A program made the translations under genes and the position numbers. A stretch of 63,841 bases of DNA, the filler included, from an uncultured Methanosarcinales archaeon (lineage in GTDB: Archaea; Nanobdellota; Nanobdellia; Woesearchaeales; CAYSVS01), in assembly GCA_964434475.1 (NCBI GenBank). It is 3 parts of 3 records of this genome, joined end to end, with 100 filler letters (N's around TTAATTAATTAA, not from the genome) between each part and the next. Parts side by side here need not be neighbours in the genome. Positions count along the whole stretch, not along the records: positions 1 to 30,792 come from CAYSVS010000011.1; 2 more parts are not named here. One strand, written 5' to 3'. The notes below the pieces were generated by a model. It made no database searches. It was given only the letters and a program-made list of their open reading frames with translations, and was not told the DNA's origin. Shown here one piece after another: positions 23,572-60,132 of this stretch (its first letter is position 1; each line of letters begins with the position of its first letter).

Positions 23572-23739
23572 ATATTATTTATCTATATTTTCAGGATTAT
23601 GTAAAATTAGAGTAATCATTAAAAGTAACAGCTTCATATTTTGTCTATCTATATTTTTAAGGTTATGCAAAACGATGTTCAATTCTAATTGTTCATCTTT
23701 TTCATTTTGTCTACCTGTATTTTCAAGGTTATGCAAAAC
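23572..23739 (-). CRISPR. CRISPR mini-array B (3 repeats, 2 spacers)
   Basis: 36-nt repeats at 23704-23739, 23638-23673 and 23572-23607 (degenerate); spacers exactly 30 nt. Confidence 0.8.
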
Positions 23740-23851
23740 CTATAACCTTTAATTTTTTTATTAAAAGGTAGTTGCCGAGTAAATAAGCTAATATTTCTCA
23801 GCTTAGGGTGCAAAACCACCCCTTTTATTATTAATTTTTTTCAAAGAACTT
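23740..23851 (-). ncRNA. tracrRNA/omegaRNA-like scaffold, copy B, with boxA-like motif
   Basis: 112-bp near-identical copy of 24471-24582; two hairpins and an anti-repeat. Confidence 0.65.
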
Positions 23852-24172
23852 TTATATAGTTTTTTTTAATTCTTCTGTTAAATAATTTAACATTTCATTT
23901 TTATCTTTAAAATTAACAGGAAACCAAATAAGTAAATTTTCATATTCATCTTCAATTTTTCCAATATCAATAAACCGAACTATTTCCACAAGCTCGTTTT
24001 TTTTATAAATATTTACAAATTTATTTACAATACACATTTTTGTTTCAAGCTCCATTAAATATGAATTTATATCTTCAATATCTAAATCTTGCCATAAATG
24101 TATAAATAAATAATTACTATATTTTTGATACTCCAAAAATAATTCTAACTCAATTTTATTCCAATAATACAT
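23852..24172 (-). CDS. Small acidic hypothetical protein between the two arrays
   Basis: 106 aa; stop codon abuts scaffold copy B. Confidence 0.6.
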   Translation of the reverse strand: MYYWNKIELELFLEYQKYSNYLFIHLWQDLDIEDINSYLMELETKMCIVNKFVNIYKKNELVEIVRFIDIGKIEDEYENLLIWFPVNFKDKNEMLNYLTEELKKTI

Positions 24173-24237
24173 TAATTACATTTTTTCAAATTTATACATA
24201 ACCTTTTATTTGTATGCTAATAATAAGTTCTTCCTGA

Positions 24238-24470
24238 ATTTTGTCTACCTTTTTTTAAGAACATACAAAATTTAATTCTAATAAAAAATATCAAGCAGGG
24301 AGATTTTGTCTACCTATATTTTTAAAGTTATATAAAACCAAATCTTTTTAAAAGTTTATAAATATTCAGTTTTGTCTACCTTTATTTTCAAGGTTATACA
24401 AAACTATGGATATGATCAAGAAAGGTGAAGGTAAGTTTTGTCTACCTTTATTTTCAAGGTTATACAAAAC
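24238..24470 (-). CRISPR. CRISPR mini-array A (4 repeats, 3 spacers)
   Basis: Identical 36-mers GTTTTGTCTACCTTTATTTTCAAGGTTATACAAAAC (+ strand) at 24369-24404 and 24435-24470; degenerate copies at 24303-24338 and 24238-24271; spacers 30, 30, 31 nt. Confidence 0.88.
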
Positions 24471-24582
24471 CTATAACCTTTTGTTTCTTTATTAAAAGGT
24501 AGTTGCCGAGTAAATAAACTAATATTTCTCAGCTTAGGGTGCAAAACCACCCCTTTTATTTTTTAATTTTTTCAAAGAACTT
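24471..24582 (-). ncRNA. tracrRNA/omegaRNA-like scaffold, copy A, with boxA-like motif
   Basis: Minus strand: GTTCTTTGAAA; GGGTG-GTTTTG-CACCC; GCTGAG..CTCGGC; CTACCTTT..AAGGTTATA complementary to the repeat. Confidence 0.65.
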
Positions 24583-25119
24583 TTATTTTATATCTAATTC
24601 TTCATCCAATTTTAACCTACTCATATTTATAGCATGATTTAAATCAGGGTCAGTATTTAATCCACATGAAGAACATTTAAATATTTCCGAATTTACTCTG
24701 TTTTCTTCTTTTTTTCTATCACGTTCACTTTTAAAATCTTCAAATTCTGAAATTTTATATTTCAATTTCCACATATCAAAGAAATGTGTTATTATTCCAA
24801 CAAAATATTCATATAAATTTCTTTCTATTTCTAAATCTATTTCCCAAATCTTTTTTTCTTCTTTAGGTCTATAATTATCATATTGTTTTCCCTGATAAAA
24901 GGAATAATGTTGTTGACTGTATATGCTTAATCGTTCATTAAATTCCCATACTTTTTTATAATCCATTTGTTCACTATATTCACAATCTATATGAAATCTT
25001 AAATAGTGTCTACCAAATTGGGTGATTGGTTTTGTAAAAACGTTAATTTTTGTTATAAATTCCTTATTTTCTTGAATCCACCCAAGATGTTTAAATGTAA
25101 AATCTGCTAAATTTCTCAT
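24583..25119 (-). CDS. Chimeric protein ending in a Cas12f/TnpB-like Zn-ribbon half and RuvC-III
   Basis: C-terminal ENRVNSEIFKCSSCGLNTDPDLNHAINM fits the TnpB/Cas12f pattern NR.....F.C..CG...dAD.NAA.NI; no RuvC-I/II seen. Confidence 0.65.
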   Translation of the reverse strand: MRNLADFTFKHLGWIQENKEFITKINVFTKPITQFGRHYLRFHIDCEYSEQMDYKKVWEFNERLSIYSQQHYSFYQGKQYDNYRPKEEKKIWEIDLEIERNLYEYFVGIITHFFDMWKLKYKISEFEDFKSERDRKKEENRVNSEIFKCSSCGLNTDPDLNHAINMSRLKLDEELDIK

Positions 25120-25783: not shown

Positions 25784-25999
25784 TTATTTTTTATTTTGTT
25801 CGTAATTTTTTAATACTTCACCCAAAGAATTATAAAACTTCTTAAGGTACCTATATATTTCAGGTTTCCATTTTTCGGATAATTCCTGTTTATTATTTTC
25901 TGAAAAACTTTTTCTTAAAGAATCCACAGGAATTTTCATTTCCTTTTCAAGTCCTTTTAGTCGAAAAATGGATTTATATTCTTTTATCCAGTTAAGCAT
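25784..25999 (-). CDS. Small HTH-like protein
   Basis: LKGLEKEMKIPVDSLRK. Confidence 0.5.
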   Translation of the reverse strand: MLNWIKEYKSIFRLKGLEKEMKIPVDSLRKSFSENNKQELSEKWKPEIYRYLKKFYNSLGEVLKNYEQNKK

Positions 26000-26498
26000 T
26001 TTTTCTTCTTATTATACTTAATAACATATTTCTTTCAGCAATTAAATTTGATGTTTGTCTTACTGCTTTTTTTACAATTTCAATTTTATTGTTTTCCATT
26101 AAATATAACAATCCCCAATTACCAGGTATCTCATTTTCTTTTATAAGACCATCAGGACAACAATAAAATCTTAACTCGCCAACTCCCTTTTCAGAATTAT
26201 TTCTGAAAGGTTTTTTACTATCTTGTAAAAAATCACTACGACTTACTTTAACTTCAATCATAACACTATATGCACTATTCCAACCTATCACATCAGGAGT
26301 TTCATTTTCTACCGTAACCATATCAACAGCAATAATAGAACAGTTTGGAACTTTGATGTTTCTTTCGTGCCTTTTAAGCCATTTTAAAGCTTTTAAACAC
26401 AAATTATCATGCTCCTTTCTATCGACCTTCCTTTTTTGCTTTTTTGGTTCTTTTTGAAGTTCTTTTGCCTTATCAACTCTTATTCCCTTTACTCCCAT
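25992..26498 (-). CDS. PD-(D/E)XK nuclease-fold protein (MmcB-like)
   Basis: E.PDVIGW...IEVKVSRSDFLQD.KK...RFYCCP.GLI...E.P..WGLL. Confidence 0.7.
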   Translation of the reverse strand: MGVKGIRVDKAKELQKEPKKQKRKVDRKEHDNLCLKALKWLKRHERNIKVPNCSIIAVDMVTVENETPDVIGWNSAYSVMIEVKVSRSDFLQDSKKPFRNNSEKGVGELRFYCCPDGLIKENEIPGNWGLLYLMENNKIEIVKKAVRQTSNLIAERNMLLSIIRRKNA

Positions 26499-27879: not shown

Positions 27880-28473
27880 TTATTCGGAAACTTCATTACC
27901 TTTAAATTCTAATCCTTCATATCTTAAATAACGGTAAAGTGTTGCTTTACTTCTTATTCCAACAGTTTTCATAATATCCTTTATAGATTCTCCTTTGTTG
28001 TATAATGTCAAAGCAGCAGCAGACTTATTTTTAGCTTCTTTTGATAAACCTTTCGGTCTACCGCCTTTTCTCCCCTTTTTTCTTGCAGATTCTAACCCTG
28101 CTATTGTTCGTTCTCTTATAATTTCTCTTTCGTGTTCAGCTAACGCAGAAAATATTGAAAAAACTAATTTACCGTTTGGAGTACTGGTGTCGATCAGGCT
28201 GTCATTTAAACTTTTGAATTTTATACCTTTTTCATTAAACTCGTTAATCAGTTTAATTAATTCCAGAGTAGTTCTACCGAGCCTATCCAGTTTCCAAACA
28301 ATAACCATATCACCTTTCCTTAACTGATTAATCAGATTTATCAGTTCTTTGCGTTCTTTTCGTGTAGACGCTTTTTCTTCAAATATTTTTTCACATCCTG
28401 CTTCCTGAAGAGCTTCCTTTTGAACTTCCAAATTCTGATGATTGGTACTTACCCTTGCATAACCTATTTTCAT
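27880..28473 (-). CDS. Serine resolvase/invertase
   Basis: GYARVST, VWKLDRLGR, ERT..GL..AR..GR.GGRP, C-terminal HTH. Confidence 0.95.
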   Translation of the reverse strand: MKIGYARVSTNHQNLEVQKEALQEAGCEKIFEEKASTRKERKELINLINQLRKGDMVIVWKLDRLGRTTLELIKLINEFNEKGIKFKSLNDSLIDTSTPNGKLVFSIFSALAEHEREIIRERTIAGLESARKKGRKGGRPKGLSKEAKNKSAAALTLYNKGESIKDIMKTVGIRSKATLYRYLRYEGLEFKGNEVSE

Positions 28474-28662: not shown

Positions 28663-29448
28663 TCAAAACATCAATCTAAATCCTTTATCCTTCTTTCTGA
28701 ATTTTCTTATTTCAGCTTTATAAAACTTCATTTGCTGTTTGCAAATAAAATTCCTGAAAATAGAAATATCTTCCTTTTTTTCTGTATCGTTTAACGCCTT
28801 AATATATTCTGCTCGATCTTCCGTAAAAACCTTTATCAAAGGTTCTTTATGATACATTTGCACATAATTCATCATTAACCTTGAAGTCCTTCCGTTTCCA
28901 TCGCCAAATGGATGTATATTAACCAGGTTGTAATGGATGTCAGCAGAAAGCTTTAAAATATCATTTCCCTTTACATTATCTATCCTTTTATTAACACTAT
29001 CAACGAGATCATTTAATAAATTTCCTACTTTACTAAAATCAGGAAAATATTTTTGATCAACATAAACTTGTGCCTTTCTTATATCCCCTTTTGATGTGTC
29101 AAAACTACCCGAAATAGTATTTACAACACCACCTGTATTTTTCATTACTTTTTCGGCAACATCCTGAATTAAATCTATACTAATTTTTCTTTTTTCTTTT
29201 GCTACTTCTTTCAGGAATAATAAAGCTTCATAGTGGTCCTTAATCATTAAATGATCTGTTAATGGTTTCCCTTTAGCTGTAATATTTTTATCCAACAATA
29301 ACCTTGTGTCATTTTCAGTAAGTGAGCATCCTTCAATTTTGGTTGAATTATATATAATAGACATCATTGAGAATTTCTCATAATCAATAGCACTCGATAA
29401 ACCATATCTCATGTATCTATTTCTTAATATTTCTAAATCATTCCACAT
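28663..29448 (-). CDS. Fic-domain protein
   Basis: HPFGDGNGRTSR; N-terminal inhibitory-type STKIEG. Confidence 0.92.
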   Translation of the reverse strand: MWNDLEILRNRYMRYGLSSAIDYEKFSMMSIIYNSTKIEGCSLTENDTRLLLDKNITAKGKPLTDHLMIKDHYEALLFLKEVAKEKRKISIDLIQDVAEKVMKNTGGVVNTISGSFDTSKGDIRKAQVYVDQKYFPDFSKVGNLLNDLVDSVNKRIDNVKGNDILKLSADIHYNLVNIHPFGDGNGRTSRLMMNYVQMYHKEPLIKVFTEDRAEYIKALNDTEKKEDISIFRNFICKQQMKFYKAEIRKFRKKDKGFRLMF

Positions 29449-30792: not shown

Positions 30793-30892
30793 NNNNNNNN
30801 NNNNNNNNNNNNNNNNNNNNNNNNNNNNNNNNNNNNTTAATTAATTAANNNNNNNNNNNNNNNNNNNNNNNNNNNNNNNNNNNNNNNNNNNN
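30793..30892. other. Artificial contig linker
   Basis: N-run with TTAATTAATTAA (stops in all six frames). Confidence 0.97.
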
Positions 30893-44872: not shown

Positions 44873-46027
44873 CAGCCAAATAACCTCGCAATATCATCTA
44901 AGCTAACGCCTTCTTTAGGTTTTTCTTTATCTTTATCATCTTCATCATCAGAACTTTCTTTTTCATCGATATCTTCATCACTATCTTCTTCACTTAATTC
45001 ATTATCATCACTATCTTCTTCACTTAATTNNNNNNNNNNNNNNNNNNNNNNNNNNNNNNNNNNNNNNNNNNNNNNNNNNNNNNNNNNNNNNNNNNNNNNN
45101 NNNNNNNNNNNNNNNNNNNNNNNNNNNNNCTTCTTCACTTAATTCATTATCATCACTATCTTCTTCACTTAATTCATTATCATCGCTATCTTCTTCACTT
45201 AATTCATTATCATCACTATCTTCTTCATCTAATTCATCTTTAACAGAATTCTCATCATCAGATTCTTTTTGCTCTTCAAGTTTTTCTTTTTTATCTTTAT
45301 CTTCTGATTCTTCCACATCTTCAAAATCTGCTTCTTTTACACCAGTAAAATGCTCTACAATCTCATCAAAATTAACATTGTCAAACAACGCCTTTAGTTG
45401 AGCATTGCCAGGAATTGCCTGCTTCAATGTATCTGGCTTTGTCTTAATCAACTCAATAATCTGCGGATTCTGTTCTAATATCTTTATTACCTGTTCTTTA
45501 GACATCTTTGGCATTGCTTCTTCTTTGCCTTCAATAGGATGTTTCTTATAGAATTCCTGAAGCATCAAAGGCAGATTATGCTTGAGCATTTCCTCTAATT
45601 CTTTTAGTTTAACTTCATCTACTTTGTTTTCTTTAAGATTCAATCCACTTACACCATCGCCTTTCTCTCTAGGAATTATATGCACCATAAAATGCGCAGA
45701 CTGTTGTCCTGCTGCTGCTCCATTAGCTATAAACACATTAGTTCCAGTCATAAGCAATGACTTTTTCAGAATCTTAGACATATCTCTGACAATCTTGAAT
45801 AAGTGCCTGAAAGTATCCTGTGGAATCAGCGGCATTATAGGATAATGTTCTTTAGGCATGACAAGACAATGGCCTTTGTTTGCTGGATTTATATCTAGAA
45901 TAGCTATTACCTTATCATCTTCATACACTTTTTTTGAAGGAATCTTTCCAGCGATTATCTGGCAAAAAGGACATTGTTTCTTCTGTTGTTCAATAATCTT
46001 CTTCTGCTCAGGTGTTAATTCTGCCAT
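44872..46027 (-). CDS. HIT family hydrolase with acidic repeat tail (spans assembly gap)
   Basis: CPFC.I, VYED, DINP.NKGH, AGQQSAHFMVHIIPR; (EEDSDDNELS)n on both sides of the N gap. Confidence 0.85.
44975..45236. repeat. 30-bp coding tandem repeat, unresolved (100-N gap at 45030-45129)
   Basis: TTCTTCACTTAATTCATTATCATCACTATC units flank the gap. Confidence 0.85.
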
Positions 46028-60032: not shown

Positions 60033-60132
60033 NNNNNNNNNNNNNNNNNNNNNNNNNNNNNNNNNNNNNNNNNNNNTTAATTAATTAANNNNNNNNNNNN
60101 NNNNNNNNNNNNNNNNNNNNNNNNNNNNNNNN
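60033..60132. other. Artificial contig linker
   Basis: N-run with TTAATTAATTAA. Confidence 0.97.

Follow-up and report, generated by a model that had tools for sequence, protein, structure and literature searches.

Two probable Cas12f guide-RNA cassettes beside the stump of a cas12f gene on a mobile-element-like contig

The stretch of DNA analysed here, referred to as the window (63,841 nucleotides, or 63.8 kb, of assembly GCA_964434475.1), carries on its minus strand two short CRISPR arrays, each attached to a copy of the same 112-nt segment, and, in front of one of them, the last codons of a cas12f gene. A first-pass annotation, made from the raw sequence, had described two guide-RNA cassettes without cas genes, and its account of the layout was confirmed. 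A repeat search of the window returned a two-copy direct repeat of 151 nt at 94% identity, with 10 differences over 152 aligned bases; besides the whole 112-nt segment, the duplicated unit takes in the 36-nt repeat next to it and, on the other side, 4 nt including a stop codon. Both cassettes, read along the minus strand, run from the stop codon of an open reading frame (ORF) into the segment and then into the mini-array. The repeats are 36 nt long (a 36-37-nt family in the repeat search), separated by 30-nt spacers and spaced 66 nt from start to start. Array A is composed of three repeats and two spacers, and array B of four repeats, the fourth highly degenerate, and three spacers; the spacers differ between the two arrays. 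Counted against the array B consensus, the differences rise from 0, 0, 5 to 13 in repeats B1-B4 and from 3, 5 to 11 in A1-A3, so the repeats decay away from the segment, as had been noticed. The coordinates of all features are collected in Table 1.

Together with its first repeat, the segment folds on the minus strand at -37.8 kcal/mol (z -4.4, with 0/200 shuffles as good), compared with -28.8 kcal/mol on the plus strand. The minus-strand fold is made of two hairpins and a long nested helix, in which the adjoining repeat is paired with two parts of the segment; in cassette B these anti-repeat helices measure 8 and 9 bp, as the first-pass annotation had proposed. Moreover, all seven differences between the two 112-nt scaffolds are located at unpaired positions of this fold, in line with the earlier statement that the copies diverge in loops and linkers.

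A homologous arrangement was found in a metagenome contig (locus L001), where about 100 nt separate a full-length cas12f-homologue gene from a 36/30 array downstream on the same strand, and where the intergenic stretch aligns with the 112-nt segment of the window. The two window copies and that of L001 served to build a covariance model (R1), which returned 44 matches across 91 sources (E<=1); a second model (R2), rebuilt from the 18 best R1 matches, likewise returned 44, across 92 sources (E<=0.01). In the retrieved loci, all matches of both models fall on the strand of the cas12f homologue, and the two matches in the window fall on the minus strand, which is that of the cas12f stump. An 18-sequence alignment was used for the pair counts: standard pairs fill 88.4% of 627 cells, a share that drops to 36-49% once the 3' partners have been shifted by 1-3 columns; changes on both sides occur at 24 of the 40 pairs, and 0/500 shuffles reach the observed value in any of five pairing measures. 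These counts are biased in favour of the model's nested helices by the fitting of the alignment to them. The pseudoknot formed by the loop of hairpin 1 and the last six bases of the repeat is absent from the covariance model and is therefore an independent test, free of this bias; it is paired in 95.3% of cases, with double changes at 3/6 pairs (GTTTTG/CAAAAC in the window, GTTGGA/TCCAAC in L001, GTTTCA/TGAAAC in L005). A pseudoknot beside the guide is an established trait of TnpB and Cas12f guides. Anti-repeat helix 4 is paired in 95.0% of cases, with 4/8 pairs changed on both sides, and the gene strand holds 73 G-U cells versus 13 A-C cells. The minus-strand orientation and the type V-like (Cas12f/TnpB-kind) scaffold put forward in the first-pass annotation are thus borne out, homologous RNAs being found beside cas12f and dead-cas12f genes. 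Covariation, whose absence would have counted against the first-pass reading, is seen among the homologues, and the neighbours of the repeat family are cas12f homologues, not Cas13b or Cas9.

The groups matched are diverse. They include Prevotella, Bacteroidales and Alistipes loci with an Asp-Glu-Asp catalytic triad, the truncated and catalytically dead proteins of loci L004 and L005, and, with R2, Sphingobacterium and Chryseobacterium loci of the sigma-factor-linked type. In each of the 15 loci that R1 matches at E<=0.001, the order is gene stop, scaffold and array; the stop lies 5-18 nt before the start of the model, and the final 36 nt of the match are a repeat that recurs 2-9 times at a spacing of 65-67 nt. 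Cassette B keeps this order, its stop codon, scaffold and array adjoining one another (the array from 24470). The abutment of scaffold and first repeat had been taken as the sign of an intermediate between omegaRNA and CRISPR, an interpretation that has to be given up: 15/15 effector-keeping loci have this ordinary layout, which is the normal one in the Bacteroidota Cas12f clade described in 2026. Each of five genomes with an intact locus contains exactly one R2 match and no orphan copy, while among 151 sampled Bacteroidota genomes R2 matched one, the centre genome alone, the family being rare there. Homologous RNAs beside cas12f, a covarying pseudoknot and anti-repeat, and the order of gene stop, scaffold and array are what characterises a type V-F guide RNA, and each cassette is very probably a minus-strand Cas12f guide scaffold with its array. 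Of the effector that a complete type V-F system would have, only residues 397-436 survive in the window.

This remnant lies at the end of the minus-strand ORF that precedes cassette B and encodes a chimeric protein of 178 aa, P0001. A phmmer search over 1.84 billion representatives returned two proteins, namely P0001 itself and P0005 (438 aa), which aligns to residues 135-178 of P0001 only; residues 1-134 are without detectable relative in the same search. With BLASTP, residues 137-178 are identical to the C-terminus of P0005 at 38/42 positions (90%), and the C-terminal sequence reads CSSCG...DPDLNHAIN. P0001 scores 18.5 bits against the Cas12f1-like TNB domain PF07282, under the cut-off of 26.3, and reaches E 6.7e-5 against the PADLOC Cas12f models. 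P0005 is a Cas12f homologue (PF07282, E 2.4e-18), whose best solved relatives are Al3Cas12f (9nzo, E 1.8e-58) and, at E 2.9e-53, a chain bearing the name 'nuclease-deactivated Cas12f' (9n9c), followed by AsCas12f-type chains and, more distantly, by Un1Cas12f1. When P0005 was compared with the 63.8-kb window by tblastn, its residues 397-436 aligned with the remnant at 90% identity (E 6.7e-18); no second match under E 4 and hence no further cas12f trace was found in the window, and an intact effector gene is absent from both the locus and the rest of the window. The break in the gene falls in the middle of the zinc finger, where the stump is fused to sequence without known relative. The description of the cassettes as cas-less holds in that no intact cas gene is present, and needs correction in that cassette B keeps the last 40-42 codons of cas12f. 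Judging by these surviving codons, the locus formerly had an effector of its own, and its effector-less state arose by gene loss.

In five of the 13 aligned proteins (P0005, P0006, P0007, P0008 and P0104), the RuvC-I Asp is replaced by Asn, and the RuvC-II Glu, the zinc finger and the RuvC-III Asp are retained. The members of this clade are full-length Cas12f homologues, 36-59% identical to P0005, and locus L082 belongs with them. On account of the substitution the clade may bind DNA without cutting it, and it may be the array-associated dead Cas12f cluster that appears in PMC13472631. In the window only the C-terminus of Cas12f survives.

Table 1. Features of the two cassettes and of the cas12f stump, in window coordinates
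Feature	Position	Strand	Basis or remark
Direct repeat, two copies	23705-23855; 24436-24586		repeat search of the window
Chimeric 178-aa ORF P0001	24583-25119, stop 24583-24585	-	residues 135-178 from Cas12f
cas12f 3'-end remnant (second CxxC of zinc finger and RuvC-III motif)	24592-24711	-	C-terminus of ORF 24583-25119
Guide-RNA scaffold B (tracrRNA-like)	24471-24582	-	fold; covariance models R1 153 bits, R2 104.8 bits
Scaffold B, GTTCTTTGAAA motif	24570-24580
Scaffold B, hairpin 1	24536-24553 (loop 24542-24547)
Scaffold B, hairpin 2	24505-24533
Scaffold B, anti-repeat 1	24495-24502	-
Scaffold B, anti-repeat 2	24472-24480	-
Array B, total	24237-24470	-
Array B, repeats	24435-24470; 24369-24404; 24303-24338; near 24237-24273	-	fourth repeat degenerate
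Array B, spacers	24405-24434; 24339-24368; 24273-24302	-
106-aa ORF P0002	23852-24172	-	no family match; last codons (..EEL..) and stop in or beside duplicated unit
Guide-RNA scaffold A	23740-23851	-	fold; covariance models R1 and R2
Scaffold A, motif	23839-23849
Scaffold A, hairpin 1	23805-23822
Scaffold A, hairpin 2	23774-23802
Scaffold A, anti-repeat 1	23764-23771	-
Scaffold A, anti-repeat 2	23741-23749	-
Array A, total	23572-23739	-
Array A, repeats	23704-23739; 23638-23673; 23572-23607	-
Array A, spacers	23674-23703; 23608-23637	-

The repeat of the window is closest to those of L004 and L005 and less close to the Prevotella/Alistipes type. The proteins encoded at these two loci end near the position of P0005 residue 379, with Glu replacing the RuvC-I residue and Lys that of RuvC-II, and the loci share with the window cassettes a GTTCTTT-AAA start. 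L005, a locus with a dead truncated Cas12f, holds two scaffold-plus-repeat cassettes in tandem (1865-2295); in the second, the gene's last codons recur together with the motif GTTCTTTAAAA, which overlaps the stop codon there. Cassette A of the window retains a few codons (..EEL..) resembling the end of the cas12f stump, and it is best read as the second cassette of such a tandem locus; a single deletion of the effector gene then explains the whole arrangement.

Some further observations concern the cassettes themselves. The motif GTTCTTT(G/A)AAA stands at the 5' edge of 5/5 cassettes of the subgroup (A and B of the window, that of L004 and both of L005), overlaps the gene stop codon in L004 and L005, and is absent from the Prevotella-type loci; GTTCTTTGAAA occupies the same place in both copies of the window. 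In L005 (1865-2295) and L004 (2440-2636), anti-repeat 1 and the first repeat overlap at the latter's 5' end, with the scaffold and the first repeat merged as a result. Past the last, degenerate repeat of array B, the sequence at about 24178-24232 on the minus strand weakly resembles the scaffold's 3' part together with the start of a repeat (local alignment score 41; shuffled sequences: mean 26.2, sd 4.3, maximum 45), a likeness that the repeat search also picked up and that may represent a third, decayed cassette lying under the start of ORF 23852-24172.

Among described systems, PMC13186708 presents Al3Cas12f and the Cas12f-MG119 family, with the trans-activating CRISPR RNA (tracrRNA) taken from the stretch between the gene and a minimal array, and with single guides made by trimming the tracrRNA at its 3' end and the repeat at its 5' end. 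The window is like this group in that P0005, the counterpart of whose C-terminus survives there, has Al3Cas12f as its best solved relative (E-value as given above) and in that the Alistipes loci L097, L119 and L121 match R2; in addition, a G-rich hairpin, a short linker and a second hairpin recur in this order at the start of the validated tracrRNAs of that paper, a comparison made by eye only. It is unlike the group in having two tandem cassettes and no effector gene, in the RuvC-I Asn of the nearest effector P0005, and in a repeat nearer to those of L004 and L005.

PMC13472631 describes dead Cas12f genes beside CRISPR arrays, with putative guides recognised by covariation just upstream of the arrays, as well as sigma-factor-linked proteins that use single guides with a 3' guide, for which an origin from repeat-spacer units is proposed; according to a proposal of that paper, the omegaRNA was split into CRISPR RNA (crRNA) and tracrRNA, which later collapsed again. 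The likeness to these dead homologues is seen in L004 and L005, with their truncated proteins, their Glu and Lys at RuvC-I and RuvC-II, and the repeats and GTTCTTT-AAA starts nearest to those of the window, and that to the dCas12f-sigmaE group in the R2 matches of Sphingobacterium and Chryseobacterium. Unlike the latter group, the window has no dcas12f, rpoE or helix-turn-helix (HTH) partner among its 57 ORFs scanned with Pfam, it holds 30-nt spacers in arrays in place of single guides of 14-16 nt, and its stump includes the zinc finger and RuvC-III, unlike the truncated sigmaE-type proteins. A dCas12f-sigmaE system was accordingly dropped as a candidate, no sigma factor or Cas12f family being found in the 57 ORFs by Pfam and none by tblastn.

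Like the omegaRNA of TnpB elements (IS200/IS605), the scaffold comes after a gene's 3' end, shares the strand of the gene and has its guide 3'. Unlike it, the guides of the window belong to repeat-spacer arrays instead of marking the end of a transposon, with no insertion sequence (IS) ends or tnpA, and the protein relatives are Cas12f, the LaTranC and TnpB-like chains scoring far lower against P0005. An omegaRNA of TnpB was rejected on the arrays of two and three spacers and on the nearest proteins. CRISPR parts without an effector gene are also known from other mobile elements, as viral mini-arrays, single repeat units and phage single guides (PMC11656645; bioRxiv 10.64898/2026.06.01.729453), which the short array with scaffold on the mobile-element-like contig resembles; those serve Cas9 (phage single guides) or the class 1 systems of the host (archaeal mini-arrays), and the window differs further by a gene stump that shows loss. 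No published report of effector-less Cas12f scaffold-plus-array cassettes was found by word searches of a limited literature, in which absence is unproven.

Searches for targets and for further copies were mostly negative. Within the window, no protospacer occurs at <=7 mismatches, and five matches have 8 mismatches. No target of the spacers of either array was found in phages and plasmids, where the best matches (E 5e-3 to 1) belong to unrelated AT-rich hosts, e.g. Lactococcus, Borreliella, Listeria and Staphylococcus, and were judged to be due to chance. Since no spacer target was found, no protospacer-adjacent motif (PAM) was derived. The exact degenerate pattern of the repeat gave 0 matches in genome, metagenome and viral contig collections; a degenerate pattern of the scaffold gave 0 in viral contigs, a result of little weight since its fixed spacer length may misfit the window. 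Rfam returned six weak matches to unrelated families, all far under their gathering scores. The cassette region as a whole had no plasmid match by blastn. One DNA run, from a microbial mat metagenome, contains the stretch; its contigs have the same sequence, break at the duplicated parts and show no alternative form.

The window is a concatenation of contigs and not one contig, with joiners of the form N44-TTAATTAATTAA-N44 at 30793-30892 and 60033-60132 and an additional 100-N gap at 45030-45129; statements of the first-pass annotation about 'this contig' and about the host need to be read accordingly. Both cassettes lie on the contig at 1-30792, which has about 24% G+C and whose 30,792 bp end without overlap in a terminal-overlap check for circularity. 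Pfam scans revealed a MobA/VirD2 relaxase and MobC on this contig, which also encodes a TraG/VirD4-type coupling protein (with only 10 relatives), ParA, an ArdC-like anti-restriction protein, DUF3945 and DUF3408 proteins, a Toprim protein, a resolvase and a Fic protein. Because of this gene set, the contig looks like a mobilisable or conjugative element. Its conjugation genes are of bacterial type, and its Cas12f relatives come mostly from Bacteroidota. The middle contig (30893-60032), in turn, encodes housekeeping proteins, among them a GlmS with named relatives exclusively in DPANN archaea (Woesearchaeota, Diapherotrites and Nanoarchaeota). The bin is thus either of mixed organisms, or a DPANN-like genome that holds a bacterial-type mobile element, and the host of the cassette contig is uncertain.

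Other genes of the window may be mentioned here. The Fic-domain protein (28663-29448, minus strand) matches the PADLOC candidate defence families PDC-S04 (E 2.1e-27) and SoFic (E 1.4e-23), and its gene is adjoined by a resolvase/invertase (27880-28473); together the two resemble a small island of defence or cargo genes within the element. A 168-aa protein (25992-26498, minus strand) has no Pfam family above threshold and matches PHROG 631, of unknown function (E 3.1e-43), with a weaker match to a PHROG annotated as DNA repair protein. An S_layer_C and HTH protein is present on the middle contig.

The identity, strand and fold of the RNA and its descent from a cas12f locus can be taken as demonstrated. 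Each cassette is very probably the RNA half of a type V-F locus, a tracrRNA-like scaffold of about 110 nt joined directly to a short CRISPR array. In the scaffold, the loop of hairpin 1 pairs with the last six bases of the repeat in a pseudoknot beside the guide; the other parts are hairpin 2 and the two anti-repeat segments, both of them paired with the repeat. Where related loci are intact, this RNA lies a few bases past the cas12f stop; here the effector gene has been lost, cassette B retaining its last 40-42 codons fused to unrelated sequence. The cassettes lie within a co-directional run of minus-strand ORFs, from 29448 down to 22287, and read-through from the upstream ORFs could still transcribe them, which would yield an RNA with scaffold, repeat and spacers. 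In this primary transcript, the scaffold would be attached to the first guide; the guides further on would require a scaffold in trans. Without a Cas12f from elsewhere, the RNA of the cassettes would have no partner, do nothing and head for decay.

The reading preferred here, with a probability of roughly 0.5, is that these Cas12f guide cassettes, having lost their effector gene, are a recently orphaned type V-F relic without present function. The main points for a relic are the cas12f stump, the outward decay of the repeats and the lack of any target found. Several points weigh against it. As about 57 of the 112 scaffold positions are paired, the chance of all seven differences being unpaired is ~0.007 by our own arithmetic; because all of them avoid paired positions, selection on the fold after the duplication is suggested, which fits continued use and is the main point in its favour. 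Repeats 1 and 2 of array B are identical and intact. Furthermore, the absence of cas12f covers the 63.8-kb window only, and the gene may be present elsewhere in the genome; the homology of the RNA rests on loci other than that of P0005, the RNA of the nearest effector not being among them; and the pair counts carry the fitting bias described above. It is possible, at odds well short of even, that selection keeps the cassettes, the effector-less guides of a mobile element being loaded into a Cas12f (perhaps a nuclease-dead one) of the host or of a co-resident element, against competitors or for gene silencing, as a Cas12f counterpart of viral mini-arrays. Apart from the unpaired-only divergence and the two perfect leading repeats of array B, this is favoured by the different spacers of the two arrays, by the co-directional ORF run, in which transcription seems likely, by the relaxase, coupling protein, MobC, ParA and ArdC of the contig, and by the RuvC-I Asn in 5/13 proteins of the nearest effector clade, which would fit binding without cutting. 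The review PMC11656645 likewise has mini-arrays on mobile elements employing host effectors, and type V-F systems enriched on plasmids. Against it stand the stump, which points to an effector once owned by the locus, the five intact-locus genomes with one scaffold match each and no orphan copies, the lack of a known partner effector for the organism, and the lack of protospacers in the window, phages and plasmids at the limits given above. That the conjugative or mobilisable element carries the cassettes deliberately, commandeering a Cas12f that another part of the cell's DNA encodes (maybe one of the RuvC-I-Asn clade, which may bind without cutting) and silencing or attacking rival elements or host genes, is rather unlikely.

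Decoys were also considered, i.e. scaffolds that would soak up the Cas12f of the host and protect the element, by analogy with phage single-guide RNAs and RNA anti-CRISPRs. Reports on phage-encoded single-guide RNAs sequestering Cas9 (bioRxiv 10.64898/2026.06.01.729453) and the review PMC11656645, on repeat units as RNA anti-CRISPRs, provide precedents, and the contig does resemble a mobile element; multi-spacer arrays with 30-nt spacers have been retained, however, which a pure decoy would not need, and the stump points to descent from a complete locus, so that decoys appear improbable. Transcription in the opposite direction, giving on the plus strand a Cas9-style single guide in which spacer and repeat would be followed by anti-repeat, hairpins and terminator, or a Cas13b- or Cas9-type array with the 112-nt segment as a plain leader or trailer, is least probable of all and hardly to be expected. 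The 36-nt repeat and 30-nt spacer format with complementary repeat ends, as seen here, is also typical of Cas13b arrays. The plus strand has two terminator-like sites where 0.1 are expected, a count that favours this reading and weighs against the preferred one. These sites coincide with hairpin 1 and with the A-rich stretch before it; relatives of the Prevotella type are without that A-run and no plus-strand gene runs into the sites, for which reasons they are read as a by-product of the two features, with a possible role in stopping antisense transcripts. The orientation of the model matches with the cas12f homologues, the position of the segment between cas12f stop and array in 15/15 loci, the excess of G-U over A-C cells on the gene strand, the weaker plus-strand fold and the lack of any Rfam match above gathering score all argue against the plus strand. 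A Cas13b (type VI-B) or Cas9 (type II) array was dropped as a candidate, every related repeat or scaffold found adjoining a cas12f homologue.

The recognition of a Cas12f-type scaffold, with its pseudoknot and anti-repeat, was achieved by the first-pass annotation from raw sequence alone, and the scaffold is tied to a clade that has Al3Cas12f as an editor and nuclease-dead Cas12f proteins as regulators, and whose biology had gone undescribed until 2026. The short scaffold, which measures about 90 nt when counted from hairpin 1 to the first repeat, may be of interest for the engineering of small Cas12f tools, as may P0005, the nearest effector, with its 438 aa and RuvC-I Asn. What is unusual about the locus is that the effector gene is gone and a 120-nt trace of it is left in the window, a natural case in which, on a mobile element, the RNA half has survived the loss of its protein. 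Should there be a partner effector, the cassettes would be a Cas12f example of guide-only hijacking, and commandeering by the element, if true, would make type V-F known for the first time as a source of guides that parasitise a CRISPR effector without supplying one; if there is no partner, they would offer a snapshot of the decay of a type V-F locus.

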